A model generated the notes under the pieces. The model made no database searches. It was not told the origin of the DNA and saw only the letters and a list, made by a program, of their open reading frames with translations. The position numbers were made by a program, and so were the translations under genes. Of a stretch of DNA of 64,000 nt, positions 37,566 to 55,720 are shown one piece after another. Source of the DNA: Dehalococcoidia bacterium. GTDB lineage: Bacteria; Chloroflexota; Dehalococcoidia; Lucifugimonadales; Lucifugimonadaceae. Every line of letters starts with the position of its first letter. Position 1 is the stretch's first letter. The stretch is from assembly GCA_002728715.1 (NCBI GenBank), contig PBVQ01000018.1, positions 10,015-74,014 of the forward strand. The letters run 5' to 3'.

Positions 37566-39938
37566 TTAGTGATCACTTTTTGATTTCGAATCTTTTTTTT
37601 CAAATAGTTCTTTTTGATATTGATGATGATTGTGCTCTTGTGCTTCCTTAGCAGTTTCGTTAGGGCTCACAACAAGTACTGGTACTCCAGGCTCTACTGG
37701 CCTTGCTTCTACTTCACCTTCCATCTTTGGAACTTTTCTCCTATTACCGGTTTTATTTACTGATACTTTAGTTGCTGCCCATGCAAGAGCACCTGATTCC
37801 GAATCTCGCATATTTGCAAGGATACTAAGAACATTAGAGCCTCTTCCTTCAGCGTATCTACCACCATTTTTATTTCCTTGACCGATTGGAACTCCAATTA
37901 CTCCTGGTCTAATTCCAGGGTGTGGATATGCTAGTGCTTCGATACTTCCATTAGAAGAGGTAATCTCAAGAACATCTCCTTCTCTGATATTTAGGTTTTC
38001 TGCTTGACGGCTATTGATCTCTACCCATGTTGACCAAGATGCTGAAGAAATTGGATCTGGAGTTTGTTGAGCCCAAGGTGCATACGCTAGTCTTCCATCT
38101 AAAATTGAGTTTGAAACAAAAGGTGCAAGGTAAAAGTCTGAAGAATGGTGGTTTACATCAGAAATATGATCTTCACCTGCGTAATTTTCTACAGATGAAA
38201 AATTACTATTGGATTTAATACTTGCAATTCCTTTGCTTGATAATTTAAAGGTTTTATTTTTGTTTGATAAATTCCACCACCCACCTCTCTGAAGTATTCC
38301 ATTCGTAAAATTATCTGGATTAGTTGATATTATCGAACCATTAGAAACATTACCATGAAGTTCTTTTAGGTCATTTTTAATTATTGATTCCATGTCGTTG
38401 CCAAAATTTTCACCTAAATCCTTAGATATTTGCAAAATTAGATCACCAAAACTTTTAGAATTACTAATAATTCCTGTACCGTCGGAGGTCATAGTTTGCC
38501 CCACAATAGGTTGCTGGGTACCTATAACCTGGTAACCTGGTGCAGGCTCAGGAATATTTGTGTCCCATGATTCAAAACAGGTGTCTTCTGGAAGTATCAA
38601 ATCAGCATATTCCATAGTGTCATTATAAACTTGTCCAAAACACACTACATTTTCTACTTTGCTTATTGCTTCTTCTATACCAGTAAATTTAGGCATCCCA
38701 TGAATTATGTCTACACCACGTATTATCAAAGTTTTTACTTCGCCATTTGACCATCTATTAATTTCATTTTCCCAGTCGCTAAGTGAATTACCAGTAGCTG
38801 TAGAATTAATTTTTGGTAACGCTGATTCTGGATTGGGTAATATACCACCCTTTGCATTGATTGAATTAGTGAGAATATTGAGAGAGTAAATGGCAATAGT
38901 AGCAAAAGTTCCATTAGTGTGAGCTTCGGACGACCCTCCCCCGAATGCTATAGAAGGGGTGTGTTTTGCAAAATGTTTGGCTGCTTCTTTTATTTTTTCT
39001 TCAGAAATGTCGCATTTATTTGCAACTATAGAAGTTGAATATTCATCCAAATTGATATCAACTACAGATAAGTATTTATTGATAAACTTTTCGTCAACTA
39101 ATTTACTGGTAATTATTTCATGTGCTATTCCCAGAGCAAGATCACCTTCAGTACCTGGTATGGGTGACAACCAAAGGTCTGAGGATGCAGCAGTATTCGA
39201 CATTCTTGGATCAACATGAATAAAATAACCTCTGTCTCCACCCTTACCTTCTCTAAATGCGCCATACATTTCATTATACTGCGCTGGGGAATGCCATGTG
39301 CTTAGCCAATCAGCTCCAAAAGAAAGAATGGTATGAGAGTTTTCTATATCAAAATGGGGTAGTCTATCTAAGTCAAAAATTCTTTTTAATGTATTTTGTT
39401 GTGTATTTTGATTGATTGGATCAAAATGCATATTTTTTGCTCCAAACTTTTTGGCAAATTCACTTGCAACATACGATGAGTGACTTCTTAGCGGGTTAGT
39501 TATGATTGTGATTTTATCCTTGGAGTCCCGAATCATATTCTTGAAGTCATTAGTCGCCTTATTCCAAGAAGTATTAATGACATTTCCAGATTTAGAATAT
39601 CTGCTCAAAGGTTCCTTAATTCTATCAGGATGATATAGTATTTGAAGAGTGGAATCATATCTTGCAGTAGCTACACCTCTATTAATTGGGTGGTCAGGAT
39701 TTCCTTCTACCTTAGTTGCTCTTCCCTGAACGACTCTGACTATAACACCATCTCCATTTGTATAATCAGGCATGCTTGTTGCGTACCAAGCATCTTCTCC
39801 TCTAACCAAATCTTCAGGATAACCGACTGGACTTTGAACAATCAGTTCTTTTTCAGGTAAGCCACACGCTGCAAAAATCATTGCTCCAGCAGCTGATTTA
39901 CCTGTAAGTGAAAGAAATTCTCTTCGATTGATTTTCAT
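37566..39938 (-). CDS. actB: ACIII molybdopterin-oxidoreductase-like subunit (ActB1) with Tat signal
   Basis: Twin-arginine signal MKINRREFLSLTG. Molybdopterin oxidoreductase-like fold, but no N-terminal CxxCxxxC cluster motif, as in ACIII ActB. Confidence 0.85.
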   Translation of the reverse strand: MKINRREFLSLTGKSAAGAMIFAACGLPEKELIVQSPVGYPEDLVRGEDAWYATSMPDYTNGDGVIVRVVQGRATKVEGNPDHPINRGVATARYDSTLQILYHPDRIKEPLSRYSKSGNVINTSWNKATNDFKNMIRDSKDKITIITNPLRSHSSYVASEFAKKFGAKNMHFDPINQNTQQNTLKRIFDLDRLPHFDIENSHTILSFGADWLSTWHSPAQYNEMYGAFREGKGGDRGYFIHVDPRMSNTAASSDLWLSPIPGTEGDLALGIAHEIITSKLVDEKFINKYLSVVDINLDEYSTSIVANKCDISEEKIKEAAKHFAKHTPSIAFGGGSSEAHTNGTFATIAIYSLNILTNSINAKGGILPNPESALPKINSTATGNSLSDWENEINRWSNGEVKTLIIRGVDIIHGMPKFTGIEEAISKVENVVCFGQVYNDTMEYADLILPEDTCFESWDTNIPEPAPGYQVIGTQQPIVGQTMTSDGTGIISNSKSFGDLILQISKDLGENFGNDMESIIKNDLKELHGNVSNGSIISTNPDNFTNGILQRGGWWNLSNKNKTFKLSSKGIASIKSNSNFSSVENYAGEDHISDVNHHSSDFYLAPFVSNSILDGRLAYAPWAQQTPDPISSASWSTWVEINSRQAENLNIREGDVLEITSSNGSIEALAYPHPGIRPGVIGVPIGQGNKNGGRYAEGRGSNVLSILANMRDSESGALAWAATKVSVNKTGNRRKVPKMEGEVEARPVEPGVPVLVVSPNETAKEAQEHNHHQYQKELFEKKDSKSKSDH

Positions 39939-39970
39939 ATTTAATTTTTTGTCCTTATATCATTCATTAA

Positions 39971-40786
39971 TTAGTGATGGCATGTTGCACAATCTGTCGG
40001 AGCACCATTATCTCTATGGCAATCAACACATTGTCTCATTTTTAGGGGTTCGACCTGGTACACTTTTTCCATAGATGCAACATTTCCATGGCAAGTTGAA
40101 CAAACTGCTGAAGGACCTGTTGTTACACCATCTGTTTCACCCTTTATATGTTCAGGGTTAGCTGATAAGTACCTTATATGAGGCTCATGAACAAATCTAA
40201 CATGGTCGGGTAACCTATGAACCCTTCTCCAATTAATTGGAGAAGTCCCATCTTCTCCAATAATTCCAGCAGCATCTCTTAGGATATTTAATTGAACATT
40301 ATCCTCTGACCCAATTACTCCGTGGCAATTGGCACAAAAATTTACAGGTGGAATATAGGCATTTGCTCCTGCTGCTGTATTTTTATTTACAGTTCTATGG
40401 CAAAAAGTACAATCGGTTCCTAAACCAACCATTACGTTACCATCTGCATCCTTATAATCTAATTGTTTTGTTGATGCATGAACCGTATGTGGAAAATTAA
40501 TGGGTTGGTCAAATGTTTGTTCAAAGCCTAGTACAGGAATGGGCTGACCCCACCACGCAGTTATTATAAACGAAGCAATAGCTCCAACAAAAGCTAAAGT
40601 GAACAGTCCTCCTATAGGTAGCAAATACATTAATGTTTTTGGTAATTCAACATCACCTAAGTGTGTGGGAGGAGGAGGGGGTTTTGGTAATTTAATGGGT
40701 AGTTTAGGAAAATTAAAGGGTAATTTAGGTAAATTGAAAATACCTGATTTAGCTTCATTATCTTTATGTTTATTTTCCAAATCCAA
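39971..40786 (-). CDS. actA: ACIII pentaheme cytochrome c subunit (ActA)
   Basis: Five CxxCH motifs (CTFCH, CANCH, CSTCH, CVDCH, CATCH) after one TM anchor. Pro/Lys-rich N-terminus PKLPFNFPKLPIKLPKPPPPP. Confidence 0.8.
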   Translation of the reverse strand: MDLENKHKDNEAKSGIFNLPKLPFNFPKLPIKLPKPPPPPTHLGDVELPKTLMYLLPIGGLFTLAFVGAIASFIITAWWGQPIPVLGFEQTFDQPINFPHTVHASTKQLDYKDADGNVMVGLGTDCTFCHRTVNKNTAAGANAYIPPVNFCANCHGVIGSEDNVQLNILRDAAGIIGEDGTSPINWRRVHRLPDHVRFVHEPHIRYLSANPEHIKGETDGVTTGPSAVCSTCHGNVASMEKVYQVEPLKMRQCVDCHRDNGAPTDCATCHH

Positions 40787-43948: not shown

Positions 43949-45010
43949 ATGTCACAAGAAGTAATAAAAGTAGGTTTTATTGGAGCAGGTACTAACACTA
44001 CATTCCGTCATATTCCTGGATTTAGAGCTATGCCTAACGTTGAACTAGTAGGAGTGGCTAATCGAAGTATTGAATCTTCAAAATTAGTAGCAGAAAAATA
44101 TGAAATTAAGAATATATATAATCATTGGATGGATCTAGTTGAAGATCCAGAAATTGATGCAATATGTATTGGCACTTGGCCCTATATGCATTCAATAATG
44201 ACTACTACTGCTCTTGAATTTGATAAGCATGTTTTATGTGAAGCAAGAATGGCTGCAAATGCTATTGAGGCACGTGAAATGCTTCATGCATCCCAATTAA
44301 AACCAAATTTGATAACTCAGATTGTTCCACCACCACACCTAATGCATTGCGAGGCACACCTAATCGATATGATTTCAGAGGGTTACTTGGGAGATATAAT
44401 AAATGTTAATATCAGAGTTAGTGATGGAAGTGCTTATCCTGATTCATTGACTGAGGTTCACTGGAGGCAGATAAGAGAATATTCAGGAAATAATGTTATG
44501 TTTTTAGGTATTTGGTATGAAAATTTAATGAGGCTTGTGGGACCTGCTAATTCAGTAATGGCTCAATCTCAAGTAGTAGTTAAGCAAAGACCAAATTGGG
44601 ATGGAGAAAAATATTTTGTATCTATTCCAGACCAAATTGATGTAATATATTCCTTGACTGGCGGTGGAAACGTTAACCTTTCAATGAGTTCTGTGAGTGG
44701 GCCTTTTTCAGAACCCATGGATCTTTGGATTTATGGATCAAAAGGTACGATTAGAATTAGAAGTAAAGGTCCAAATGAATTACCTATAGTTGAAGGAGCT
44801 TCTAAGGGGGAAAAATCTATGTCTATAATTAATATACCTTTAGAAAAGCAAGGAAAATGGAGAGTGGAGGAAGAATTTATAAATGCTATCAGGGGTAAAG
44901 AGCAAATTAGTAGGTCAAATTTTGTTGATTCATTAAAATATATGGAATTCACGGATGCTGTTCAAGAATCATGGCAAACCGGTAGTAGAATTTACTTACC
45001 TTTAGTATAA
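43949..45010 (+). CDS. Gfo/Idh/MocA-family NAD(P)-dependent oxidoreductase
   Basis: IKVGFIGAGTNTTFRHIPGF Rossmann N-terminus and the CEARMA (EKP-like) region. Confidence 0.8.
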   Translation: MSQEVIKVGFIGAGTNTTFRHIPGFRAMPNVELVGVANRSIESSKLVAEKYEIKNIYNHWMDLVEDPEIDAICIGTWPYMHSIMTTTALEFDKHVLCEARMAANAIEAREMLHASQLKPNLITQIVPPPHLMHCEAHLIDMISEGYLGDIINVNIRVSDGSAYPDSLTEVHWRQIREYSGNNVMFLGIWYENLMRLVGPANSVMAQSQVVVKQRPNWDGEKYFVSIPDQIDVIYSLTGGGNVNLSMSSVSGPFSEPMDLWIYGSKGTIRIRSKGPNELPIVEGASKGEKSMSIINIPLEKQGKWRVEEEFINAIRGKEQISRSNFVDSLKYMEFTDAVQESWQTGSRIYLPLV

Positions 45011-45018
45011 CTTTTATA

Positions 45019-45798
45019 ATGGCAGGCAAAAATATTCAAATAGATTTGAACGCGGATATAGGTGAATCCTATGGGATTTATAATTTAGGTGATGATGAAA
45101 AGATTGTCGAGATAATTACTTCTGCAAATATAGCTACTGGTTTTCATGCAGGTGATCCAAATCATATGAAAAGAACAGTAGATCTATGTGAAATAAATGA
45201 TTTTGGTATTGGAGCGCACCCTGCATATCCAGACAAACTTGGGTTTGGTAGAAGAGATATGAATCTTCAAACTGAAGAAATATCAAACATATTAACATAC
45301 CAGATTGGATCACTGATTGGTTTTACGAAACGGAAAAAAATTCAACATGTAAAGCCACATGGAGCATTATATAATTCTGCAGCAAAGGATGAAAGAATTG
45401 CCAATGCAGTTGTAGATACAATTATGAAATTTGATCCAGAATTGATACATGTGGTTTTGGCCGGTTCTATTTGGGAGGATATTGCTAGGTATAAAAAAGC
45501 AAGAGTAGCAAGAGAATGTTTTGCTGATAGAGCAGTTAATAAGGATGGTAGTTTAGTTTCAAGATCTATGCCAAACGCGGTTATAGATGACCTAGATGAA
45601 ATTATAAAAAGATCTAAAAAAATGGTAATTGAGAGTAAGGTTGTAGCTAATGATGGAACAGAGATTAATTTTGTTGCTGACTCTATTTGTGTCCATGGCG
45701 ATAACCCAAAAGCTATATTAATTGCTAGTTCTTTAGAAAGAAGCTTTTTGGATGAAGGGATAAGAATATTACCTTTATCCAAAATGGAAAATATCTAG
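45019..45798 (+). CDS. pxpA: LamB/YcsF family protein (5-oxoprolinase subunit A-like)
   Basis: IDLNADIGESYG, ANIATGFHAGDP, GAHPAYPDKLGFGRR and KPHGALYN. Confidence 0.85.
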   Translation: MAGKNIQIDLNADIGESYGIYNLGDDEKIVEIITSANIATGFHAGDPNHMKRTVDLCEINDFGIGAHPAYPDKLGFGRRDMNLQTEEISNILTYQIGSLIGFTKRKKIQHVKPHGALYNSAAKDERIANAVVDTIMKFDPELIHVVLAGSIWEDIARYKKARVARECFADRAVNKDGSLVSRSMPNAVIDDLDEIIKRSKKMVIESKVVANDGTEINFVADSICVHGDNPKAILIASSLERSFLDEGIRILPLSKMENI

Positions 45799-45800
45799 AA

Positions 45801-46460
45801 ATGAATATAAATAAACCTAAAATCTCTCATCTGGGAGATTCTAGCATAGTAGTAAGATTTTCAGATAAAATCAATTCTGAAGATAATGATAAAGTATATA
45901 GTTTTTATAAGTTGATTAAAGAAAAAAACTATTCTTTTGTTAATGATGTAATACCTACTTATAATTCTGTTGCTATTGAATATTTACAAAGTGAAAAAAC
46001 TTTTTTTGAAATTAAAGAACTTGTAAAATCTCTTACAGATGAATTAAGTGAAATAAAATTTGATTACGAAAAAAAAATTATAGATATCCCGGTAAAATAT
46101 GGAGGTAAATATGGTCCGGATATAAACTTTGTTGCTGATTACTGTAAAATTTCTAGGGAAAAATTAATTGAATTACATACTGGTGTAGATTATAGAGTTT
46201 ATATGATTGGTTTTTCACCGGGCTTCCCATACTTAGGAGGTATGAACTATAAATTAGTATGTCCTAGAGTAAAAAAGCCTAGGATAAATGTTCCAGCAGG
46301 GTCAGTAGGTATAGCTGAACAACAAACAGGAATTTATCCAATAGATAGTCCTGGAGGTTGGCAAATTATAGGTAAAACTTTCTTAAATTTATTCGATTTA
46401 AGCAATAAAAATCCATCCTATATTTCTCCAGGAAATATTATTAGGTTTAGGGAGGATTAG
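45801..46460 (+). CDS. pxpB: KipI / allophanate hydrolase subunit 1-like (5-oxoprolinase subunit B-like)
   Basis: IPVKYGG..GPD, YMIGFSPGFPYLGG, GSVGIAEQQTGIYPIDSPGGWQIIGKT. Confidence 0.85.
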   Translation: MNINKPKISHLGDSSIVVRFSDKINSEDNDKVYSFYKLIKEKNYSFVNDVIPTYNSVAIEYLQSEKTFFEIKELVKSLTDELSEIKFDYEKKIIDIPVKYGGKYGPDINFVADYCKISREKLIELHTGVDYRVYMIGFSPGFPYLGGMNYKLVCPRVKKPRINVPAGSVGIAEQQTGIYPIDSPGGWQIIGKTFLNLFDLSNKNPSYISPGNIIRFRED

Positions 46461-47531
46461 TTGCCGTACTTAAGAGTAACATCTCCAGGGCTTTTTTCAT
46501 CAGTTCAAGATAATGGTAGAGATGGTATGAAATCTATTGGTATATCTTCTGGAGGAGCCCTTGATACTCAATCATATTCTATGTCAAATTATATTCTTGG
46601 TAATTCTAAAAATGATGCAAGCATAGAAATTATAGGAGGGGGCTTTGATGCTATATTTTCTGAGCCTACTTTTTTTTGTGTAACCGGCGCACATGCTAAG
46701 AACTATTTAGACAAAAAATTAATATTAAGCAATACCCCCTATTATGCCTCATCTGGATCTAAGATAAATATTGGAATTCTCGAGGATGGCTGGATTTGTT
46801 ATATAGGTATTATTGGAGGTGTACAAAGTAAAAAATATCTTGGGTCAAGATCTGTATATATTAATTCAGAAATTTTTGGAGAGAGAATTGATAAAAATAC
46901 AAAAATTAATTACATGGAAAAAAAATATTCACCTAAACCTAAAATTTACAGAATAAAAAATGAATATACAAACCTATCAATAAGCAATGAAGTTACATCA
47001 ATTAGAGTATTAGAATCTACGGAATATAATAAATTTACTGAAAAATCTAAAAAACTATTTTTTAGTTCAATTTTTACTATCTCTGATCAATATAATCGAC
47101 AAGGTATGAGGCTTAATGGCCCAGAAATTAATACTAAAAAAGATAATCATGATATTATCTCAAATTACGTTAATAAAGGTTCGATCCAAGTTCCAGGTGA
47201 TAAAATGCCTATAGTTTTACTTTCTGACTCGCAAACAACTGGCGGGTATCCCAAGATAGCAAATGTAATTAGTGTCGATTTTACTAAATTAGTCCAGCTA
47301 AGGCCAGGTAGTAAGATAAGGTTTGTACTTACTGATATAGTTGAAGCTCAAAAAATATTTAGAAAAAATAATAAATATATTGAACATAATATTTATGAGA
47401 AAAAGCTAGAAAAAATTTCACTTAAGGTAAATGGTTCTGATATTAGTTTTGGGTATTTATTTGGAGATAATGCAAACCTAATTGACATAGATGGGCGATT
47501 ATTGCCTTTAGATTTTATTAAAGAATTATAA
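46461..47531 (+). CDS. pxpC: KipA / allophanate hydrolase subunit 2-like (5-oxoprolinase subunit C-like) with C-terminal extension
   Basis: VTSPGLFSSVQDNGRDG, SGGALD, GSIQVPGDKMPIVLLSDSQTTGGYPKIANVISVD. About 45 extra C-terminal residues. Confidence 0.85.
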   Translation: MPYLRVTSPGLFSSVQDNGRDGMKSIGISSGGALDTQSYSMSNYILGNSKNDASIEIIGGGFDAIFSEPTFFCVTGAHAKNYLDKKLILSNTPYYASSGSKINIGILEDGWICYIGIIGGVQSKKYLGSRSVYINSEIFGERIDKNTKINYMEKKYSPKPKIYRIKNEYTNLSISNEVTSIRVLESTEYNKFTEKSKKLFFSSIFTISDQYNRQGMRLNGPEINTKKDNHDIISNYVNKGSIQVPGDKMPIVLLSDSQTTGGYPKIANVISVDFTKLVQLRPGSKIRFVLTDIVEAQKIFRKNNKYIEHNIYEKKLEKISLKVNGSDISFGYLFGDNANLIDIDGRLLPLDFIKEL

Positions 47532-47606
47532 TTTTTTTGTTTTTTTGTTAGAATTTAGTTTGTTTTAACAATATTTTATTAAATATTAACTTACAGGAGA
47601 ATATTT

Positions 47607-47963
47607 TTGGATTCAAATGAATCAATATTATTAGACGGTGTATATGTTACTGCTATTGGTATGCTGACTGTTTTTTTAATATTAGTTCTTATTTTTATAT
47701 CTATAAAATTGGTAATTTTTCTTGCTTCAATTAAAAAAGACTTAAATGACAATACTGAAAATAATCAAATTATAAGAATCCCTGAACAAAATGTTAATAT
47801 TTCTGAAAGCCAAGTTGCTGCTATTGCTGTAGCTTATTTGTTGCGGGGTCATAACCAAAACATTGATCATTTTGACACTAATCAACCAGTTATAAAAAAT
47901 TCTAGTAATTGGTGGTCTAATGGCAATCAAAGAAGTTTGAACCAACCAACTACAAAATACTAA
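47607..47963 (+). CDS. oadG: OadG-like small membrane subunit of Na+-translocating decarboxylase
   Basis: N-terminal GVYVTAIGMLTVFLILVLIFISI helix is typical of the OAD gamma family, plus its position before the biotin carrier and oadB. The soluble tail is not conserved. Confidence 0.6.
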   Translation: MDSNESILLDGVYVTAIGMLTVFLILVLIFISIKLVIFLASIKKDLNDNTENNQIIRIPEQNVNISESQVAAIAVAYLLRGHNQNIDHFDTNQPVIKNSSNWWSNGNQRSLNQPTTKY

Positions 47964-47988
47964 GTTGATTTTAAGAAAGTAAATATAT

Positions 47989-48426
47989 TTGCCTGAGTCA
48001 AACTACATACAAATAAAAATAGGAAATGAATCCTACGATGTTGAAGTAGGCGATATTTCAGTATCACCTGTGGATGTAACAGTTAATGGGAATATTTATT
48101 CTGTTGATATATCTAAATATTTGAAAAATATTCAACCTAAAAAAAGAAAAATCACAAAAAAAATTCCTACAAGAACAAAAAAACAAGAAAATATTACCAA
48201 AAATAATAATACTGTTAATAACTCAGTTAAATCTCCCATGCCTGGCACTATACTAGGAGTGAAAGTATCAGTTGGGGATACTGTCAAGGCAGGGGATGAG
48301 CTATTGGTATTAGAATCAATGAAAATGGAAAATATGATTAATTCTCCTATAGATGGAACTATAAGTAAAATCTTAATATCAGAAGGTGATTCTGTTCAAC
48401 ATGGTCAGGAACTAATAATATTTTAA
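47989..48426 (+). CDS. biotin carboxyl carrier protein (MmdC/GcdC-type biotinyl domain)
   Basis: SPMPGTILGVKV..GDELLVLESMKMEN with the MKM biotinylation motif, a Lys-rich linker and N-terminal IKIGNESYDVEV / VTVNGNIYSV hairpins. Confidence 0.85.
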   Translation: MPESNYIQIKIGNESYDVEVGDISVSPVDVTVNGNIYSVDISKYLKNIQPKKRKITKKIPTRTKKQENITKNNNTVNNSVKSPMPGTILGVKVSVGDTVKAGDELLVLESMKMENMINSPIDGTISKILISEGDSVQHGQELIIF

Positions 48427-48436
48427 GGAGATAATA

Positions 48437-49624
48437 TTGGAAGACTTAATATTAGGAATAGAGACTGTTTTTGATAATCCGCGACTCATAATTATGTGGA
48501 TCATATCATTTTCTCTTTTATATTTTGGAATATTTAAGAAGAAAGAGCCTCTATTATTAATACCTATTTCTATGGGGCTATTTTTTGCCAATCTTCCATT
48601 GTCTGAGTTTGTTAGATTAGAAAAAGAAGGACATACAGCAGGACTACTAATAACCTTTCAAAAAATTGGAATGGAATCCGATATTTTCCCACTTTTGATA
48701 TTTTTAGGAGTTGGTGCTTCTACTGATTTTGGTCCTATGTTACGTAATCCAAAAACTTTGTTACTAGGAGCCGGAGCACAGATGGGTGTATTTATTTCTT
48801 TATTAGGCGCTTTATTTTTAGGATATTTTAAGATTTTTGATTTTGGCTTATTGGAAGCATCTTCTATAGGAATTATAGGAGGAGCAGACGGACCTACCAC
48901 AATATTTATTTCTACAAGAATGAGAGAACTTGGAGAATCATTGTCTGGCGTTGAGGTTATGGATATTGTTGGAGCTACAGCAATAGCTGCTTATTCATAT
49001 ATGGCATTAGTGCCAATTATTCAACCTCCTTTGATAAAGCTTTTTACTACCAAAAAAGAGAGAAGAATAAAAATGAATCAGGTAGTTCAAGATACTCCGT
49101 ATTATGTTAAGATTATATTTCCAATATTAAGTATATTGATAATAAGTATTTTAGTTCCTTCCGCATCAACATTAATAGGCATGCTTATGTTAGGAAACTT
49201 AATAAAAGTTAGTGGTGTGGTTCCTAGGCTTGCTGATGTGTCTGAAAATTCTTTGATGAACGTAACAATCATTTTTCTGGGTTTAGCGGTAGGTTCTACT
49301 ATGCCTGCAGAAGTTTTCCTTAGGTGGGAAACTATAGGTATATTTATCCTTGGACTCGTTTCATTTATATTTGCTACAATTTCTGGTATTATTTTAGCCA
49401 AAATCATGAATATTTTTAGTAAAGAAAAAGTAAATCCTATGATTGGTGCTGCAGGTGTTTCTGCTGTTCCAATGGCTGCGAGAGTAGTACAAGAAATGGG
49501 GTTGAAAGAAGACCCTGAAAATCATTTACTTATGCATGCTATGGGCCCGAATTTAGCAGGTGTAATAGGTACTGCTACTGTAGCAGGAGTTTTGTTAACA
49601 TTAGTTCCAAAGATTGTGAGTTGA
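48437..49624 (+). CDS. oadB: Na+-translocating decarboxylase beta subunit (OadB/MmdB/GcdB family)
   Basis: KKEPLLLIPISMGLFFANLP, IGIIGGADGPT, MIGAAGVSAVPMAARV and AMGPNLAGVIG are family-typical. Confidence 0.9.
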   Translation: MEDLILGIETVFDNPRLIIMWIISFSLLYFGIFKKKEPLLLIPISMGLFFANLPLSEFVRLEKEGHTAGLLITFQKIGMESDIFPLLIFLGVGASTDFGPMLRNPKTLLLGAGAQMGVFISLLGALFLGYFKIFDFGLLEASSIGIIGGADGPTTIFISTRMRELGESLSGVEVMDIVGATAIAAYSYMALVPIIQPPLIKLFTTKKERRIKMNQVVQDTPYYVKIIFPILSILIISILVPSASTLIGMLMLGNLIKVSGVVPRLADVSENSLMNVTIIFLGLAVGSTMPAEVFLRWETIGIFILGLVSFIFATISGIILAKIMNIFSKEKVNPMIGAAGVSAVPMAARVVQEMGLKEDPENHLLMHAMGPNLAGVIGTATVAGVLLTLVPKIVS

Positions 49625-50526
49625 GAATTTTGAAAAAACAAATTATAGATGGAATAATACCAATTATATCTACCCCGATTAATAGTAAAGGAAATATCGT
49701 ATTCGAAGACTTAGAGCGTCAAGTTGAATGGTTGATCTCTTCAGGTGTAAATGGTGTCGGAATAGCTGTAGCATCAGAGATATTTAAATTTAATGAGAAA
49801 GAAAAAGACTCTATTTTAAAAAATGTAGTCAAAACTAATAATGGAAGAGTTACAGTTGTTATGAATACCGGTGGAGAAAGTACGGACTTAACTATATACA
49901 ACTCTGAAAAAGCTAAAGATTTAGGTGCTAATTCATTAATGATAAGGCCTACCTCATTTTGGTCTTATCCCTATTCAGAGCACTTTAATTATTTTATTGA
50001 TATTGCTAATGCTGTAGATTTACCTATTTTTTTACAGGATCAACCAACTGCTCCAGTAACACCTAAAATGGCTGTTGAACTAGCTAATAAACACGACAAT
50101 TTAGCCTATGTAAAAGTAGAAACTCCTCCCACAATGCCAAGAGTTCATGAGACAAAATTGCTCGATAAAAAAAATAAAGTAACTATATTTGGGGGAGCAG
50201 GAGGAGCATTTGCAATTGAAGAATTTTCCAGAGGATCTGTAGGTACAATGCCGCATCCTATTTTACCTGAAATGTTTGTAAAAATTTGGAAAGAATATAA
50301 ATTAGGTAAAATTGAATCTGCAAAAATTGAACACCAAAAATATTCAGAACTAACAAAAATTTTATCTCAGGCTCTTGGTCTGGCTCCGTGGCTATATAAA
50401 TATATTTTAGTAAGGCGCGGAATTTTTACAAAAGGTTCCGATTATGCAAAATTACCCTCATTAAGACCAGACAAAGAACAATACATAGAGGTTGATGGAA
50501 TACTTGATAGATTAGGACTACTATAA
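49621..50526 (+). CDS. DapA / N-acetylneuraminate-lyase-family class I aldolase-like protein
   Basis: GIIPIISTPIN..G.I, SGVNGVG and the YVKVE (putative Schiff-base Lys) region. Overlaps the oadB stop by 4 nt. Confidence 0.7.
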   Translation: MRILKKQIIDGIIPIISTPINSKGNIVFEDLERQVEWLISSGVNGVGIAVASEIFKFNEKEKDSILKNVVKTNNGRVTVVMNTGGESTDLTIYNSEKAKDLGANSLMIRPTSFWSYPYSEHFNYFIDIANAVDLPIFLQDQPTAPVTPKMAVELANKHDNLAYVKVETPPTMPRVHETKLLDKKNKVTIFGGAGGAFAIEEFSRGSVGTMPHPILPEMFVKIWKEYKLGKIESAKIEHQKYSELTKILSQALGLAPWLYKYILVRRGIFTKGSDYAKLPSLRPDKEQYIEVDGILDRLGLL

Positions 50527-51338
50527 TGGATAATTTTTTTCAAACAGATTTTTCATTTGTAGTTCTTTTATCACTATTGTTATTATCTCTTATTATTGGA
50601 ATTGTTGGAGGAATAGTAGGAATCCCTTTAGGAATAATAAGAGTTCCAATAATGAATTTTTTTGGAGTAGATTTTTTTGTAGCTGCTAGTACAAATTTAT
50701 TTGCTAGTTGTTTAGGATCAATATCTGGCGTTATTCCTGCAATAAAACAAAAAAGGGTAATTTACCGAATTGTAATATTTATTGGTGTCCCTTCTATGAT
50801 TGGCTCCTTTATTGGAGGTTTTTTTGCAGATTCAGTTTCAGTAAGATTTGTTCTTCTTTTAGTCGCTGGTATGTTAATTTCTTCTTCATTTTTTTTGATT
50901 AAAAAAGCCATATCAGAAATAAAGAATTTATCTACAAATATAAAAGATCTCAATGAAGGTCAATTATCTTTTTTAAGGATGTCTAGTGAAGTCTCGACAG
51001 GATTCATTATAGGTGTGATTGGAGGAATAATTGGTGTAGCGTTAGGAGTTCTAAGAGTACCTTTGATGATACAGGTATTAAAAGTTAGACCAACCCTAGC
51101 AGCGGGAACAAATCTAGGATTATCAATTTTGATAACTTCATCTGGATTTATGGGGCATTTATTGAGCGGCAAGGTTGATTGGTTTTTAGTTGCTTTGGTT
51201 ACTACTCCATCAATTTTTGGAATGTATTATGGTTCAAAAATAGGTGGTAAATTTCATCAAGGCAAATTACGACTCACCATAGGCTTAGTTTTACTTTTTA
51301 TAACGCCTTTAGTTATTTACAATGCTCTAAACCAGTAA
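50526..51338 (+). CDS. TauE/SafE (TSUP) family anion exporter
   Basis: Internal duplication GIPLGIIRVPIM / GVALGVLRVPLM, each followed by TM helices. TAATG overlap with the upstream gene. Confidence 0.8.
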   Translation: MDNFFQTDFSFVVLLSLLLLSLIIGIVGGIVGIPLGIIRVPIMNFFGVDFFVAASTNLFASCLGSISGVIPAIKQKRVIYRIVIFIGVPSMIGSFIGGFFADSVSVRFVLLLVAGMLISSSFFLIKKAISEIKNLSTNIKDLNEGQLSFLRMSSEVSTGFIIGVIGGIIGVALGVLRVPLMIQVLKVRPTLAAGTNLGLSILITSSGFMGHLLSGKVDWFLVALVTTPSIFGMYYGSKIGGKFHQGKLRLTIGLVLLFITPLVIYNALNQ

Positions 51339-51341
51339 TTA

Positions 51342-51375
51342 TTATTATCATGGATATTTTGACCCATGATAATAA
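51342..51375. terminator. bidirectional hairpin between convergent tauE-like and sodN genes
   Basis: Perfect 12-bp inverted repeat TTATTATCATGG / CCATGATAATAA with a 10-nt loop, flanked by A/T runs on both sides. Confidence 0.6.
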
Positions 51376-51382
51376 ATCTTAA

Positions 51383-51823
51383 CTACTTTTTGGTTTCCCA
51401 AAAGATATTACCTATTTCTTCTAAAGCAGATTTAAATTCTTTTGCTTTATCTAAATCAACATTAACTTTTACGTAGGATCCAAGCTTGCAGGCATTCCAT
51501 ACTTTTTCATGCAAGTCTGGATATTTTTCAAGGTGCTCTGGCTTAAAGTAATCAGTCCAAATAACTAGAATGTCATTTTTAGCTTTTGTTGCATGCTCTT
51601 CTTTAGCTGCAACATATCTCATCATCGAGTTAGCTAAACTTGGAGATGGACCTCCTGAAACATCCAATTCTTCCATTAGTTCAGTCATTCTTACTACGGT
51701 TTGTGCTGCTTGTATTGCATCCCGCGGATCATATATTCCACATGGTATATCGCAATGAGCATATGCATCTCCGTCATATAATGGATTTAATTTATCTAAA
51801 GATTTAATTATTTTATTTATCAT
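51383..51823 (-). CDS. sodN: nickel superoxide dismutase precursor
   Basis: The Ni-hook HCDIPCGIYDP follows a ~22-aa pro-peptide. Four-helix-bundle-sized protein. Confidence 0.9.
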   Translation of the reverse strand: MINKIIKSLDKLNPLYDGDAYAHCDIPCGIYDPRDAIQAAQTVVRMTELMEELDVSGGPSPSLANSMMRYVAAKEEHATKAKNDILVIWTDYFKPEHLEKYPDLHEKVWNACKLGSYVKVNVDLDKAKEFKSALEEIGNIFWETKK

Positions 51824-51900
51824 TTATTTCCTCATTCAATAACAAGATATTTATTGTTAATTGTTTGTATTATAAGATAGTCTATTAAATTAAATTAAAA

Positions 51901-52356
51901 ATGTATAGAAAAACATATAAAATTTTTGAGAATTTATTACTAATTGTAATTAATTTTTTCCCTCAAATTACCAAATATCGTTACATAAGAGTAAATGGCC
52001 CTAGTATGGAACCTACTTTAAAAAATAACTCTATTTTATTTATGAAAAGATTTAATTTGAGCACAGATAAACTTAAAAGATTCTCAATTATAAGGTATAA
52101 AGATTCTGTCAATAAATTTTATATAAAAAGAATTATAGGTCTACCTTTGGAAAAAATAGAAATTATCGATAGTAAACTTTTTATTGATAGCGAATATCAA
52201 GAAACAGATATATTAGAAAAAAATAAAAATTACAGTTGGATGTTGAAAAAAAATCAAATAATACTCTTTGGAGATAATTATCTAAATTCAGGCTTTGATT
52301 CTAGAAAACTAGGTCCAATTAATCTAAGCGATATTCAGATAACGCATATTAGATAA
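51901..52356 (+). CDS. sodX: S26-family peptidase, NiSOD maturation protease SodX-like
   Basis: VNGPSMEPTL (Ser) and YIKRIIGLP (Lys) motifs, GDN..S.DSR. Divergent from sodN, as in known NiSOD loci. Confidence 0.75.
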   Translation: MYRKTYKIFENLLLIVINFFPQITKYRYIRVNGPSMEPTLKNNSILFMKRFNLSTDKLKRFSIIRYKDSVNKFYIKRIIGLPLEKIEIIDSKLFIDSEYQETDILEKNKNYSWMLKKNQIILFGDNYLNSGFDSRKLGPINLSDIQITHIR

Positions 52357-53495: not shown

Positions 53496-54836
53496 CTATA
53501 ATTTATTAGCAAAATCTTTCTTGATATCCAAAATAGTATTTTTTGCGCTAATTACTGCAGCTTCCATTGTTGATGGCCACTCAGATTCTGCCCAGTCTCC
53601 AGAAATATATAATCCTTTAATTTTTGTTCTATTTTTTGATCTTATTTTTTGTATTCCAGGTTGGCATCGAAATGTTGCATTAAGCATTTTAATAACTGAA
53701 AAATTTATCAATTTACTTTTTTTCGATTTTGGAAAAAGTTTATTTATTTCTGAAAGAAATATTTCTTTTATTATTTTTTTGGGTTTATTTTTCCATTCCC
53801 ACGCATTACTTAGTGAAATTACAATATGTTGAAAACTTGAACTAGAATTTTTAATTTTCGAATCGTTAAAGATCCACTGTATTGGACTTCCCAAAACAAC
53901 CATAAATTTTTCATCGAAAAAATAATTTTCAAACCATAAGTGTATACCGACTATTGGTGCCATATTAATTTCTTTTGATTTTTTGAAATAACTTTGATGA
54001 TTTTTTGGAATAATATCTAATATTTGATTTGGTGGCAAAGTTGATATGACTATATCAGATTTAATTTTTCTGTCGTCTTTAGTAATTACTCCTGATATTT
54101 TATCGTTTTTTACTATAATAGATTTAATTTCTTGGTTTTTAATGATTTTTGTATTTGTATTTTTAAGAAAATTTTCTGCTGAATCACCAAGAAGTTTAGT
54201 TAGCCCAACGTTAGGTATTGCAAAATTAGCATTTATGTCTGACTCTATGAAAGCTACCTGGAAAAGTCTTATTCCAATGCTTGCACTAACATTTTTAATT
54301 TCATCATTCAAAGCAGGTATCGCAAATAACTCCCAAAAACAATCGATAGTATTTTTACTTTGATTATTATTTTTTAACCAATTATAAAAATTTTCATTAT
54401 CTAATTCCTTAAGATCTTTGGGTTTCATTTTGGATATTTTATATAAGGTTTTTAGTAAACTAATTCTTTCTCGTAATTTTAGGTGTTTATATTCCAAAAT
54501 AGAAAAAACTTTACCTAGTATATTGATAGGGAAGTTGTGGGATCGTAGATTAACTAATTTATTTTTATTAAGTACCGGTATTCTTAGTTTTTTTTCAAAG
54601 GAAATTTTTTCAATTGCGTTGATTTCGTACAAGAAATTTATAAATTCTTTGCATGCTCCTACAATAATATGTTGTCCATTATCAATTTCTTCTTTTGAAT
54701 TTTTATCGAAGAATGAATAAGCTCTTCCGCCTAAGAATGGCCTTTTTTCTATAAGGATATTATCTATTTTTTCTTTTGCTAGTTTACATGAAATTGCTAA
54801 TCCACTTACTCCTCCACCTATTATGATAATTTTCAT
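53496..54836 (-). CDS. hpnE: FAD-dependent amine-oxidase-fold desaturase, hydroxysqualene dehydroxylase HpnE-like
   Basis: MKIIIIGGGVSGLA dinucleotide-binding motif, ~446 aa, C-terminal LYISGDW. 4-nt overlap with the hpnD-like gene. Confidence 0.65.
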   Translation of the reverse strand: MKIIIIGGGVSGLAISCKLAKEKIDNILIEKRPFLGGRAYSFFDKNSKEEIDNGQHIIVGACKEFINFLYEINAIEKISFEKKLRIPVLNKNKLVNLRSHNFPINILGKVFSILEYKHLKLRERISLLKTLYKISKMKPKDLKELDNENFYNWLKNNNQSKNTIDCFWELFAIPALNDEIKNVSASIGIRLFQVAFIESDINANFAIPNVGLTKLLGDSAENFLKNTNTKIIKNQEIKSIIVKNDKISGVITKDDRKIKSDIVISTLPPNQILDIIPKNHQSYFKKSKEINMAPIVGIHLWFENYFFDEKFMVVLGSPIQWIFNDSKIKNSSSSFQHIVISLSNAWEWKNKPKKIIKEIFLSEINKLFPKSKKSKLINFSVIKMLNATFRCQPGIQKIRSKNRTKIKGLYISGDWAESEWPSTMEAAVISAKNTILDIKKDFANKL

Positions 54837-55720
54837 CGAAATAATCCGATATAAAAACTTTTAATTATTGAAGGAAACATTATCTTGATTTTTTGAGTTT
54901 TTGACAACCTGATTTTTTTATTTATGACATCAAAGTTATTTTTTTCTATTTCAGTAAGAATCTCAAAATAAATATTCTTCATAATCTCAGGACAAAATCT
55001 ATATTTGTTATTTATTAGTGGTAATAGTCTTTCACCTGATATAAAATAATCTCTTACTCTTTTGGCTTGAAATTCCATAAACTTTCTTACATTTTCTTTT
55101 TTTTCTCCAGATAGAATTTCATTTTCAGATGTGTTGAAATTTCTTAGTTCATCTTCAGGAAGATAAAACCTTCCCATTTTATAATCTTCCTTAATATCTC
55201 TCAATATATTGGTTAGTTGAAGTGCAATCCCTAAATCTGTTGCATACTTATGAGCTTTTAAGTCTTTTACTCCAAAAACTTCAATCATAGCTAAACCCGT
55301 AGAACTCGCAACTTTTTTACAATATTCTGTTAGTTGATAAAAATTTTTATATTTCTTTTTATTAAGATCCATGCGACATCCATCTATAACATCTTTTAAG
55401 TGTCTAAGGTTTTGTGGATGTTTTCGTAAAGTTTCTCCTAGTGCAATCCACAGTCCATTATGTTTATATTTTTTTGGCTCTATGCAATCATTTAATTTAT
55501 TCTCAATATCAAATAACTGAGATTCAATATTTTTTTTTGGTAAATTATTATTTTTGTCTACCAAATCATCTACTAGTCTACAAAAAGCATATCCTGAATA
55601 AATTGCATTTCTTTTTTCTCTAGGAAGAATTTTAAATGCATAGTAAAAATTAGATGATGCTGACTTGGTTAATTTTGCCACAAAATTATAGGAATTATTT
55701 ATTTCAGTTGTTGGATACAT
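54833..55720 (-). CDS. hpnD: squalene/phytoene synthase family protein, presqualene diphosphate synthase HpnD-like
   Basis: YAFCRLVDDLVD and NILRDIKEDYKMGRFYLP Asp-rich motifs. Second of two tandem paralogues upstream of hpnE. Confidence 0.65.
   Translation of the reverse strand: MYPTTEINNSYNFVAKLTKSASSNFYYAFKILPREKRNAIYSGYAFCRLVDDLVDKNNNLPKKNIESQLFDIENKLNDCIEPKKYKHNGLWIALGETLRKHPQNLRHLKDVIDGCRMDLNKKKYKNFYQLTEYCKKVASSTGLAMIEVFGVKDLKAHKYATDLGIALQLTNILRDIKEDYKMGRFYLPEDELRNFNTSENEILSGEKKENVRKFMEFQAKRVRDYFISGERLLPLINNKYRFCPEIMKNIYFEILTEIEKNNFDVINKKIRLSKTQKIKIMFPSIIKSFYIGLFR

Follow-up and report, generated by a model that had tools for sequence, protein, structure and literature searches.

Conserved linkage of pxpABC to sodium-pump genes in SAR202 bacteria suggests a biotin enzyme coupling ring opening to the sodium gradient

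The locus described here shares its parts with three known kinds of enzyme: the prokaryotic 5-oxoprolinase PxpABC (E. coli YbgJKL, B. subtilis KipI/KipA/YcsF), urea carboxylase/amidolyase, and the Na+-translocating biotin decarboxylases (OadABG, MmdABCDE, GcdABCD, Mad). Urea carboxylase transfers a carboxyl group onto a nitrogen of urea, and KipI and KipA act on a kinase in Bacillus. To our knowledge every characterised OadB-family enzyme is a decarboxylase pump, and no OadB-type pump has been shown to run physiologically in reverse in vivo. In a 2026 cryo-EM study, M. smegmatis homologues of PxpC and PxpB bind biotin on its carrier protein (BCCP), 'positioned to participate in a carboxylation reaction' (PMC13012033). 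These homologues sequester BCCP-biotin, urea carboxylase activity was not detected, and the authors lean towards seeing MSMEG_0435-0436 as a regulator of the mycobacterial acyl-CoA carboxylase (PMC13012033). The equilibrium constant Keq([Glu]/[5-OP]) is ~0.035 (PMC13274462), which by our own calculation amounts to only ~+8 kJ/mol, comfortably within reach of one or two Na+.

The window, by which we mean the whole 64 kb stretch analysed, belongs to a low-GC SAR202 (Dehalococcoidia) genome. Its ORF listing gives nine ORFs at 43949-51338, all on the + strand, with gaps of 8, 2, 0, 75, 25, 10, -4 and -1 nt in gene order from GFO to TauE. ORF listing, Pfam and RNA folding agree with a preliminary description of this DNA on the ORFs, their families, their spacings and the closing hairpin, and its six central assignments (LamB_YcsF, CT_C_D, CT_A_B, OAD_gamma, Biotin_lipoyl, OAD_beta) were all matched by HMM. 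The features are as follows.

43949-45010, + strand: Gfo/Idh/MocA oxidoreductase, GFO (Pfam GFO_IDH_MocA, 4.9e-19)
45019-45798, + strand: PxpA (LamB/YcsF), putative lactam/amide hydrolase subunit (Pfam LamB_YcsF, 5.4e-88)
45801-46460, + strand: PxpB (KipI, CT_C_D), half of a urea-carboxylase-type carboxyltransferase fold (Pfam, 3e-66)
46461-47390, + strand: PxpC core (KipA, CT_A_B), the other half of that fold (Pfam, 1.5e-65)
47391-47531, + strand: PxpC tail (residues ~311-356), putative docking element of two beta-hairpins, beyond the YbgK alignment
47543-47554, + strand: promoter-like extended -10 motif TTTGTTAGAAT, in the pxpC-oadG gap
47607-47963, + strand: OadG-like membrane anchor (Pfam OAD_gamma, 2.6e-8; 34.9 bits against a gathering score of 27)
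47989-48426, + strand: BCCP of the MmdC/GcdC type (Biotin_lipoyl, 4.5e-21)
48437-49624, + strand: OadB, carboxybiotin decarboxylase / Na+ channel subunit (OAD_beta, 8.5e-136; TIGR01109, 450 bits)
49621-50526, + strand: DHDPS-family Schiff-base enzyme (Pfam DHDPS, 2e-26), its start overlapping the oadB stop
50526-51338, + strand: TauE/SafE-family anion permease (Pfam TauE, 1.5e-36), with a 1-nt overlap of the DHDPS stop
51342-51375, no strand: perfect 12-bp inverted repeat (hairpin stem) between the convergent TauE and Ni-SOD genes

The hairpin folds as RNA at -12.9 kcal/mol (z = -4.4; 0/200 shuffles as stable) and is probably a bidirectional terminator. The flanks of the cluster vary among lineages, through RadC insertion, DHDPS duplication and presence or absence of a prpBCD block. 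GFO, previously listed among the nine genes, proves to be a regionally conserved neighbour that does not always adjoin pxpA: RadC sits between the two in Lucifugimonas, L087 and L092, and Lucifugimonas and L092 have an additional reverse-strand gene there. The DHDPS gene lies directly 3' of oadB (or of the BCCP gene if there is no oadB) in all related loci reaching that far. Its product scores under every NCBIfam equivalog cut-off, has L-2-keto-3-deoxyarabonate dehydratase as best PDB match (73 bits), and conserves the lysine context YVKVETP. TauE is kept downstream in SAR202 loci.

PxpA scores 326 bits against NCBIfam NF003814 (cut-off 226), with P. horikoshii PH0986 as best PDB match (260 bits); PxpB scores 211 bits against TIGR00370 (cut-off 145) and matches PH0987 and E. 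coli YbgJ in the PDB. PxpC (full gene 46461-47531, + strand) passes only a domain-level NCBIfam model and fails the PxpC equivalog (202 bits against a cut-off of 500). The top Foldseek matches of its AF2 model (pLDDT 86.5) are YbgK (5dud), MSMEG_0435 (3mml) and the CT domain of urea carboxylase (3va7), and it matches urea carboxylase entries 3va7 and 5i8i at E ~1e-26. PxpB and PxpC each have all the residues that are invariant in the family alignment, and they are the only carboxyltransferase-fold proteins in the window.

OadG has a TM helix at its N-terminus and, in the SAR202 alignment, a conserved soluble C-terminal region (AAIAVA..., with a W-x2-G-x-x-R motif). The BCCP starts with two association hairpins at its N-terminus, followed by a basic linker and then the biotinyl domain; its NCBIfam matches also take in the part of OadA that precedes the biotinyl domain (model positions 469-581). 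Its biotinyl-lysine motif LESMKMEN lines up with EAMKMEN in the P. horikoshii carrier, and the MKM lysine with that of solved carriers. OadB scores 356 bits against S. typhimurium OadB and conserves D203, Y229, N373, G377, S382 and R389 (S. typhimurium 6iva numbering). Read from the sequence, the catalytic residues of OadB and BCCP are intact.

The order pxpA-pxpB-pxpC-oadG-BCCP-oadB-DHDPS-TauE is intact in all ~25 SAR202-type loci inspected in genomes and metagenomes (L001-L012, L087, L092 and metagenomic PxpC loci), including 9/9 of the metagenomic PxpC loci with downstream room, while PxpC identity drops to ~34%. Indels in the region never split pxpABC from the oad genes in these loci. The linkage first described from a single genome is found in every SAR202-type locus examined. 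It suggests a new enzyme complex coupling ring opening to a sodium gradient instead of ATP. Coupling of PxpBC to the BCCP/Oad module, in whichever direction, we hold to be fairly probable, and given coupling the carboxylating direction is modestly favoured; the full reading, with PxpB/PxpC as the alpha-equivalent carboxyltransferase of a membrane-bound biotin enzyme whose module runs in that direction, is put forward tentatively.

On this reading the dedicated MmdC-type BCCP would carry carboxybiotin back and forth, linking PxpBC to the OadB/OadG sodium module, with docking through the OadG C-terminal region, the N-terminal pair of hairpins on the BCCP and the hairpin tail of PxpC, mirroring the binding of OadG by the OadA association domain. 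Na+ influx through OadB would load CO2 onto biotin; PxpBC would move it on to a 5-oxoproline-type lactam, at the ring nitrogen, much as urea carboxylase does with urea; PxpA would hydrolyse the activated ring; and the resulting carbamate would lose CO2 spontaneously. The DHDPS-like enzyme and the TauE permease may handle the downstream product or a transport step. In the scheme as a whole the sodium gradient would replace ATP in an amidolyase-type ring opening, in bacteria that are abundant in the ocean.

We scanned 52 ORFs of the window, covering every ORF of at least 200 aa except two that run antisense over identified genes. Among them is no Carboxyl_trans, PYC_OADA or ACCA-type carboxyltransferase and no biotin carboxylase, which bears out the absence of both within 64 kb that had been remarked on before; the precomputed Pfam matches for genes called in L001-L006, L087 and L092 likewise contain neither. 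The only HMGL-like protein in the window (5124-6746, - strand) was considered as an OadA and rejected, as its LeuA dimer domain makes it a LeuA/CimA-type synthase. As a special feature of this locus, the missing adjacent carboxyltransferase has lost weight: the nearest non-SAR202 OadB, from Archaeoglobus, also belongs to an oadG-BCCP-oadB trio with no carboxyltransferase adjoining, so an unlinked alpha subunit has a real precedent.

The Archaeoglobus trio lends support to two independent systems lying side by side, namely an ATP-dependent 5-oxoprolinase PxpABC and a Na+ decarboxylase trio whose canonical carboxyltransferase is encoded elsewhere, for example an MmdA-type subunit making propionyl-CoA for the methylcitrate genes downstream in most relatives. 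We consider this arrangement doubtful, though it draws on several observations. PxpA and PxpB pass 5-oxoprolinase models, and most SAR202 relatives have prpB, prpC and prpD behind the oad unit; the window, however, retains the trio though its prp genes are lost, which counts against independence. Synteny among SAR202 extends over the entire ~20 kb region, so part of the pxp-oad linkage may be inherited gene order, but independence does not explain why indels spare the pxpABC-oad junction. In Peptoniphilus a lone oadB belongs to a glutamate-catabolic setting, and pxp genes occur a few kb away but outside that setting.

The gap between pxpC and oadG bears on the same alternative. At 66-157 nt in the SAR202 lineages looked at, it is the widest gap in the cluster, and just past the pxpC stop it holds the promoter-like motif, in the form TTTG(T/C)TAGAAT, conserved across deeply diverged SAR202 lineages: L012, L011 and L002 have it 10-15 nt beyond the stop, and L087 has a variant, at a PxpC identity of ~34%, and the 45 nt flanking it are near-invariant among five close relatives. 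Because of this motif the nine genes, presented as one operon in the preliminary description, likely do not form one simple operon; the pxpABC half and the oad half can probably be transcribed separately.

The PxpC tail points the other way, since independence leaves an association-type tail on SAR202 PxpC unexplained. By alignment PxpC runs ~47 residues past the end of E. coli YbgK, and the tail is present on all SAR202 PxpC; in the model it forms five short strands in a small beta-sheet (pLDDT 72-82). Against an association-hairpin HMM for MmdC/GcdC/OadA proteins, for which 0/76 reversed-sequence controls fell under E 0.01, the homologous tails of L114 and L122 match at E 1.4e-4 and 6e-3, and the L092 tail behaves likewise at a weaker score (5.2 bits, the top-scoring non-BCCP ORF). 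By hhalign the tail resembles the canonical association hairpin (P = 1e-4); the window's own tail matches the hairpin models only weakly. The likeness to the BCCP hairpins pointed out earlier holds for a clade-wide tail, with HMM matches in some members and the form of a canonical association hairpin in deep branches; hairpin-like PxpC tails are also found in clusters without any Oad genes.

Variant clusters in other lineages add to the case for coupling. In a related lineage (L128, L106) oadB is absent, and between pxpC and DHDPS lie a BCCP and an OadG homologue without the membrane helix, retaining the C-terminal region alone (HMM E 3.6e-4 and 2.5e-7). BCCP and soluble OadG therefore belong with Pxp and not only with OadB; two independent systems would not account for such a remnant beside pxpC. 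In L135 the order is pxpB-pxpC-BCCP-biotin carboxylase-pxpA, so in other lineages a supplier of carboxybiotin takes that slot beside PxpBC-type proteins, which favours the carboxylating direction. The preliminary description had accB/accC-like genes often accompanying LamB-KipI-KipA clusters; such clusters do exist but are rare (~2/80 loci), and a literature search found no paper on their function.

The evidence for coupling applies equally to the same complex (PxpBC, BCCP, OadG, OadB) working in the classical direction, with PxpBC handing biotin the carboxyl of its substrate, a carboxylated amide or lactam derivative that PxpA might make or consume, and OadB decarboxylating carboxybiotin and exporting Na+. 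Such an enzyme would add a fifth type to the Na+-translocating decarboxylases. The characterised OadB-family enzymes all work this way, OadB here retains all residues for Na+ binding and proton-dependent decarboxylation, and the neighbours are catabolic (the DHDPS-like enzyme, the permease and, in most relatives, prpBCD). We nevertheless think this direction unlikely: we can think of no naturally occurring N-carboxy or activated C-carboxy compound that a urea-carboxylase-type carboxyltransferase could use, the role of PxpA goes unexplained, and neither the ATP-dependent biotin carboxylase beside PxpBC in L135 nor the absence of OadB in L128 and L106 fits a PxpBC that produces carboxybiotin for discharge.

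PxpBC might instead be a regulator that sequesters the biotinylated carrier and turns the sodium pump off, on the model of MSMEG_0435-0436 or Bacillus KipI/KipA. Sequestration of BCCP-biotin without detected urea carboxylase activity in M. smegmatis agrees with this (PMC13012033), but PxpA is always present, PxpB and PxpC keep every family-invariant residue, AccC-containing clusters argue for catalysis, and a catalytic alpha subunit would still be needed; we rate it very improbable.

The earlier proposal that PxpB/PxpC act as the carboxyltransferase is thus supported in part, by the linkage, the tail, the OadB-less and AccC variants and the cryo-EM precedent, with the promoter-like motif and the Archaeoglobus trio standing against it. 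In weighing coupling we also counted in its favour the lack of a nearby canonical partner, the energetics and the intact parts, and against it the regional synteny, the ordinary 5-oxoprolinase scores of PxpA/PxpB, the weak match of the window's tail, the hairpin tails on PxpC without Oad genes and the undemonstrated reversal of OadB. From the genes, their intact catalytic motifs, the conserved linkage and the variants we infer the physical complex, its direction and its substrate.

Among known systems, urea carboxylase/amidolyase joins CT_A_B and CT_C_D into a biotin-dependent carboxyltransferase acting on an amide nitrogen, with a hydrolase that then takes over the carboxylated product; SAR202 PxpBC is made of the same two modules. 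Unlike it, the SAR202 system is without an ATP-grasp biotin carboxylase, its subunits are separate polypeptides, and LamB/YcsF stands in place of an amidase-signature allophanate hydrolase. MSMEG_0435-0436 on the long-chain acyl-CoA carboxylase (PDB 9yx5) shows a PxpC/PxpB homologue holding BCCP biotin in a carboxyltransferase-like pose, but that BCCP is part of a housekeeping carboxylase with no sodium pump. Pxp clusters with accB/accC, such as L135, likewise place a dedicated BCCP behind pxpC; its partner there is an ATP-dependent biotin carboxylase in place of OadB/OadG, and the PxpC tails are helical where those of SAR202 are hairpins.

With the Na+-translocating decarboxylases the locus shares a beta subunit with all key residues, a small gamma/delta-type anchor with an N-terminal TM helix, and a BCCP with the N-terminal association hairpins and MKM lysine of MmdC/GcdC. 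It differs in its OadG, which is longer than usual with a clade-specific C-terminal motif, and in having no HMGL-like/PYC_OADA, Carboxyl_trans or MadC/D alpha subunit in the window or in the Pfam listings of L001-L006, L087 and L092. The 5-oxoprolinase PxpABC has the same three families in an equally tight arrangement; SAR202 PxpA and PxpB pass the curated models and the PxpC fold is YbgK-like. Unlike that enzyme, SAR202 PxpC fails the equivalog and bears the ~47-residue hairpin tail, and the SAR202 pxp genes always precede a BCCP and sodium-pump module.

Nine co-directional open reading frames (ORFs) lie exactly where the preliminary description had placed them (43949–51338, + strand), with gaps of 8, 2, 0, 75, 25, 10, −4 and −1 nt between successive ORFs, and the hairpin said to close the row has a perfect 12-bp stem (z = −4.4). 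Pfam searches returned the families claimed for the encoded proteins, here in gene order:

GFO, oxidoreductase: GFO_IDH_MocA, E 4.9e-19
pxpA: LamB_YcsF, E 5e-88
pxpB: CT_C_D, E 3e-66
pxpC: CT_A_B, E 1.5e-65
oadG: OAD_gamma, E 2.6e-8 (34.9 bits; gathering score 27)
BCCP, biotin carrier: Biotin_lipoyl, E 4.5e-21
oadB: OAD_beta, E 8.5e-136
DHDPS-like gene, 49621–50526, + strand, overlapping the oadB stop: DHDPS, E 2e-26
TauE: TauE, E 1.5e-36

By the NCBIfam models, PxpA (NF003814, 326 bits against 226) and PxpB (TIGR00370, 211 against 145) exceed their 5-oxoprolinase cut-offs; PxpC falls far under its equivalog cut-off (NF045499, 202 against 500 bits) and passes a domain-level model only (TIGR00724, 237 against 230). 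OadB scores 450 bits with TIGR01109 and 356 bits against the solved S. typhimurium subunit, and its alignment to 6iva conserves D203, Y229, N373, G377, S382 and R389, which we take to be the key Na+/H+ residues of OadB. The hydrophobic N-terminal segment of OadG, a transmembrane helix, is kept in SAR202 homologues. The biotinylation motif of BCCP, ESMKMEN, aligns with EAMKMEN of the MmdC-type carriers 2d5d and 5gu8, and the N-terminal part of the protein aligns to the stretch of OadA that precedes the biotinyl domain (model positions 469–581). L-2-keto-3-deoxyarabonate dehydratase is the closest match of the DHDPS-like enzyme, which keeps the Schiff-base lysine context; in related loci reaching that far, the DHDPS-like gene comes after oadB or, if oadB is missing, after BCCP.

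To our knowledge, sodium-pumping biotin decarboxylases all draw their carboxyltransferase from a small number of families. We scanned 52 ORFs of the window, among them all those of at least 200 aa except two in antisense overlap with identified genes. As the preliminary description had claimed, these 52 include no Carboxyl_trans, PYC_OADA or AccA/AccD-type carboxyltransferase and no biotin carboxylase (CPSase_L_D2 or Biotin_carb). Nor do they include an alpha subunit, the usual carboxyltransferase partner of these decarboxylases, of the HMGL-like plus PYC_OADA, Carboxyl_trans or MadC/D kind, and a canonical alpha is likewise absent from the precomputed Pfam matches for genes called in the related loci L001–L006, L087 and L092. 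Three other candidates were set aside. The HMGL-like protein at 5124–6746, considered as a hidden OadA, has a LeuA dimer domain, lacks PYC_OADA and biotin domains, and is a LeuA/CimA-type synthase. A PrpB-like PEP-mutase protein is absent from the window, yet the Oad trio is kept there. The DHDPS-like enzyme was dropped despite its tight linkage, since we know of no precedent for a member of that family as a carboxyltransferase; its use as a second carboxyl acceptor, transcarboxylase-fashion, would be pure speculation. Near a dedicated carrier, PxpB and PxpC are the only proteins with a carboxyltransferase fold. Because of this, and because the fold is that of the urea carboxylase carboxyltransferase, we propose that PxpC and PxpB would together be the alpha-equivalent of the cluster's biotin enzyme.

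The linkage of pxp and oad genes, suggested earlier as a check on such coupling, is conserved: the order pxpA-pxpB-pxpC-oadG-BCCP-oadB occurs in all of the SAR202 loci L001–L012, L087 and L092, and DHDPS and TauE come next wherever the contig is long enough. Every SAR202-type locus examined has the cluster, with its core never interrupted, and in a PxpC-seeded metagenome scan BCCP and OadB lay downstream in all SAR202-type PxpC loci with room for them (9/9). Across these lineages OadB is 70–99% identical, while identity falls to ∼41–47% for PxpB and ∼34% for PxpC. At least 8000 proteins matched OadB at E ≤ 1e-30; the best 120 of these are all at least 70% identical, and many come from Tara or other marine metagenomes. 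The closest relatives listed carry the annotation Dehalococcoidia or Chloroflexi, and among them is Ca. Lucifugimonas marina, a SAR202 bacterium in culture; OadB of the MAG ‘Chloroflexota bacterium SAT13’ is 99% identical to that of the window. An apparent pxpB-pxpC fusion in L011 (5048–6736) is an assembly gap bridged by masked or unknown bases (X).

The flanks vary more. RadC, with or without a reverse-strand gene, stands between GFO and pxpA in several lineages, and DHDPS is duplicated in one. A prpB-prpC-prpD-TPP enzyme(-cupin) block lies between TauE and the nickel superoxide dismutase (Ni-SOD) gene in most relatives (L004, 14047–19209; L092, 13252–18820) and is missing from the window (51339–51382), which fits a streamlined genome of ∼30% GC. 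The wider region is nevertheless syntenic in SAR202, running through alternative complex III, E1 alpha/beta, the cluster, Ni-SOD, signal peptidase and aquaporin, so inherited gene order accounts for part of the pxp-oad linkage. Other gene sets seen in the window were:

33486–40786, − strand: alternative complex III-like row just upstream of E1 alpha/beta, syntenic in L004, with a multihaem cytochrome c7-like protein, molybdopterin oxidoreductase, 4Fe-4S protein, NrfD-like membrane protein and a 469-aa protein without a Pfam match
51383–52356: Ni-SOD-like gene with an HCDIPCGIY motif (L004 homologue listed as PF09055, Sod_Ni), adjoining a divergent ORF where L004 and L092 have the S26 peptidase gene, likely a sodN-sodX pair
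53496–58419, − strand: isoprenoid/carotenoid-like set of an amine-oxidase-type desaturase, two squalene/phytoene synthase paralogues and a polyprenyl synthase
12675–17843, + strand: second isoprenoid/carotenoid-like set, with an MMPL transporter, CrtC-like hydratase and glycosyltransferase

The nine genes had been described as a single operon. The gap between pxpC and oadG is the widest of the core in each lineage inspected (66–157 nt), and its first ∼45 nt (window 47532–47575) are near-invariant in five relatives whose PxpC is 67–89% identical. An extended −10 promoter-like motif, TTTG(T/C)TAGAAT, lies 10–15 nt past the pxpC stop in the window, L012 (7034–7052), L011 (6737–6755) and L002 (9069–9087), with a variant in L087, and is kept despite ∼34% PxpC identity and widely differing GC content. 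We read it as a putative internal promoter for oadG-BCCP-oadB-DHDPS-TauE. The leader that follows, CATCGTATTTT...GGTGAC in L012 and L002, looks conserved and could be regulatory; an Rfam scan of the window, this gap included, found no RNA family. Consensus scans of 43.4–52 kb performed at chance level for both promoter-like sites (49 against 49.8 expected) and terminator-like sites (4 against 3.9), so a weak hairpin within the pxpC 3′ end is no evidence of termination. With no convincing terminator found behind pxpC in that scan, read-through into oadG is likely too. The conserved motif therefore weakens the single-operon claim, and unrelated expression of the two halves is not demonstrated.

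Outside SAR202, the nearest OadB proteins are archaeal. Desulfurococcales encode a 587-aa OadA-like alpha subunit directly upstream of oadB. Archaeoglobus (L013, 7225–9059; also L014, L015 and L021) has oadG-BCCP-oadB without an adjacent carboxyltransferase, and with HMG-CoA reductase upstream; its alpha subunit would have to be unlinked or unconventional. SAR202 is therefore not alone in having such a trio, and nothing speaks more strongly for the view that the pxp and oad genes are independent neighbours, the trio being served by an unlinked alpha subunit. We find that explanation somewhat doubtful. Among 74 distant OadB loci, pxp genes lay within 8 kb in two, both from Peptoniphilus (L043 and L051). 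There (923–9068) the order is pxpA-Nramp-pxpB-pxpC-D-glutamate cyclase-formate/nitrite transporter family protein-glutamate dehydrogenase, followed by a lone oadB with no alpha, gamma or BCCP gene visible beside it; the locus is a glutamate/5-oxoproline catabolic island adjoining a pump subunit.

Two kinds of variant cluster show what else the slot after pxpC can hold. The first lacks oadB and comes from related GC-rich organisms. L128 (4417–9074) has pxpA-pxpB-pxpC-(121-aa ORF)-BCCP-DHDPS-GFO-RadC, with PxpA 69% and DHDPS 64% identical, and the shorter L106 (129–3200) has its pxpC-to-DHDPS stretch in the same order; TauE, prpB and prpC lie upstream on the opposite strand. The small ORF has no membrane helix and matches only the soluble C-terminal two-thirds of SAR202 OadG (E 3.6e-4 and 2.5e-7 among 156 ORFs), over the AAIAVA segment and a W-x2-G-R-x-R-Q motif, and the BCCP retains its double hairpin. 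This gene content suggests that, with the pump lost, PxpABC and the DHDPS-like enzyme kept the carrier and the anchor's soluble part. The second kind confirms that some Pxp clusters hold accB/accC, as stated earlier: L135 (4103–8517) is a tight operon of pxpB-pxpC-BCCP (174 aa)-biotin carboxylase (449 aa)-pxpA, and L151 is similar. Such a cluster would depend on both biotin and ATP; we found no paper on its function. Its order indicates that an ATP-driven or a Na+-coupled partner of the biotin carrier can follow pxpC.

In the oxaloacetate decarboxylase OAD, the association domain of OadA docks with OadG. PxpC extends ∼47 residues beyond the end of E. coli YbgK, a tail shared by every SAR202 PxpC. 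In the full-length model (pLDDT 86.5) it is predicted as five short strands after the last helix (pLDDT 72–82). An HMM whose only sources were Desulfurococcales OadA-like alpha subunits and the N-terminal hairpins of MmdC/GcdC carriers from outside SAR202 matches the Oad-linked PxpC tails of L114 (E 1.4e-4) and L122 (E 6e-3), which follow the pattern ...IDGADYRVEI...VNGIEYVVHI. By the same HMM the L092 tail (IAVNGETYNVELV) is the best non-BCCP ORF of 669, weakly (5.2 bits). Profile-profile alignment of SAR202 tails with the hairpin motif gives P = 1e-4 over 17 columns. The resemblance to biotin-carrier hairpins proposed earlier draws its support from the tails of other members of the clade and from the profile alignment; the window's own tail, a diverged copy, gets no score from this HMM. 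Foldseek with a tail-only model (pLDDT 67.6) gave no match at E < 0.7; a two-subunit pyruvate carboxylase, matched at rank 6, was not significant and was left unused.

Hairpin ends are not confined to this clade. A clear hairpin (E < 0.01) was found at 8/76 sampled PxpC C-termini and at 0/76 reversed controls, and six of the eight belong to plain pxp clusters that have neither Oad nor BCCP genes close by, which marks the hairpin as a recurrent PxpC accessory and not a SAR202 invention. Canonical hairpin ends were seen on ordinary PxpC of L105, L107, L109, L113, L144 and L154 (weaker in L140 and L155) and on PxpC P0138 (L088) and P0145 (L091); the cluster order is pxpA-(Nramp)-pxpB-pxpC, and one such hairpin is YNLKVNGKLYNITVEEI. 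For the proposed enzyme we envisage an OAD-like docking module built from the PxpC tail, the BCCP hairpins and the C-terminus of OadG.

As to direction, a Na+ gradient reportedly reversed the oxaloacetate and methylmalonyl-CoA decarboxylases in vitro (Dimroth and Hilpert, 1984). If PxpBC and the sodium module are coupled, three considerations incline us towards carboxylation: the sister architecture of L135 pairs PxpBC with an enzyme able only to supply carboxybiotin; the OadB-less variant would be viable with a substitute housekeeping biotin carboxylase, and would not be if carboxybiotin needed discharge; and no natural donor is evident for a reverse urea-carboxylase reaction. Coupling in this carboxylating direction is the reading we tentatively prefer. 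On the same three points, coupling as a classical decarboxylase pump seems rather unlikely. In current reviews PxpBC are only ‘assumed’ to phosphorylate 5-oxoproline with ATP, and Keq([Glu]/[5-OP]) is ∼0.035 (PMC13274462), from which we calculate a cost of ∼+8 kJ/mol for ring opening. By our estimate two Na+ should be enough for this at ∼0.47 M external Na+. The substrate need not be 5-oxoproline itself, given the divergent PxpC and the DHDPS-like enzyme and permease always attached.

A 2026 cryo-EM study found that the PxpC/PxpB homologues MSMEG_0435-0436 of M. smegmatis bind the long-chain acyl-CoA carboxylase at two BCCP domains and hold one biotin ‘positioned to participate in a carboxylation reaction’; urea carboxylase activity was not detected (PMC13012033). 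That PxpBC binds its carrier as regulatory sequestration strikes us as very improbable. In a broader view, accB/accC-linked clusters, the hairpin-tailed ordinary PxpC (8/76) and the mycobacterial complex would reflect an interchangeable supply of carboxybiotin. The full proposal, that SAR202 OadB is reversed in vivo, with seawater Na+ and not ATP carboxylating biotin, that PxpBC spends this carboxybiotin on activating a lactam, later hydrolysed by PxpA, and that PxpBC may be biotin-dependent carboxyltransferases in many bacteria, is a speculative one that we put forward with some doubt.

We found no literature linking Pxp genes to OadB-type pumps or describing the SAR202 cluster, and nothing relevant on SAR202 oxoprolinase or oxaloacetate decarboxylase, on KipI/KipA with sodium decarboxylases or on YcsF with biotin carboxylase; the Lucifugimonas cultivation paper leaves the cluster genes unmentioned. 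All the parts belong to known families, and their combination is undescribed in the literature searched. If coupling is true, the PxpBC partner would be a new carboxyltransferase family and bring a new substrate class to sodium-pumping biotin enzymes. If the pump is reversed, this would be the first natural enzyme in which sodium-motive force replaces ATP in biotin carboxylation, and a cheaper payment, ∼8 kJ/mol, for opening 5-oxoproline-type rings in an energy-limited ocean bacterium. The question bears on the PxpABC mechanism and on why the mycobacterial homologues bind BCCP. Presence in every SAR202-type locus examined and the marine origin of many OadB matches suggest that the cluster may be important to how nitrogen-containing dissolved organic matter is turned over in the deep ocean, and since the cultured Ca. 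Lucifugimonas marina carries it, the idea is directly testable.

Three known systems resemble the cluster in part. Like the Na+-translocating decarboxylases (OAD, MMD, GCD and MAD), it has a beta subunit, a gamma/delta-type anchor and an MKM biotin carrier; unlike them, it shows no canonical alpha among the 52 window ORFs. Compared with the PxpABC 5-oxoprolinase, its PxpA and PxpB pass the curated models, whereas PxpC fails the equivalog model. With urea carboxylase it shares the CT_A_B and CT_C_D modules and BCCP, PxpC matching 3va7 and 5i8i structurally (Foldseek), although here the modules are separate polypeptides, and the ATP-grasp biotin carboxylase of that enzyme, absent from the window ORFs scanned, is present in L135.
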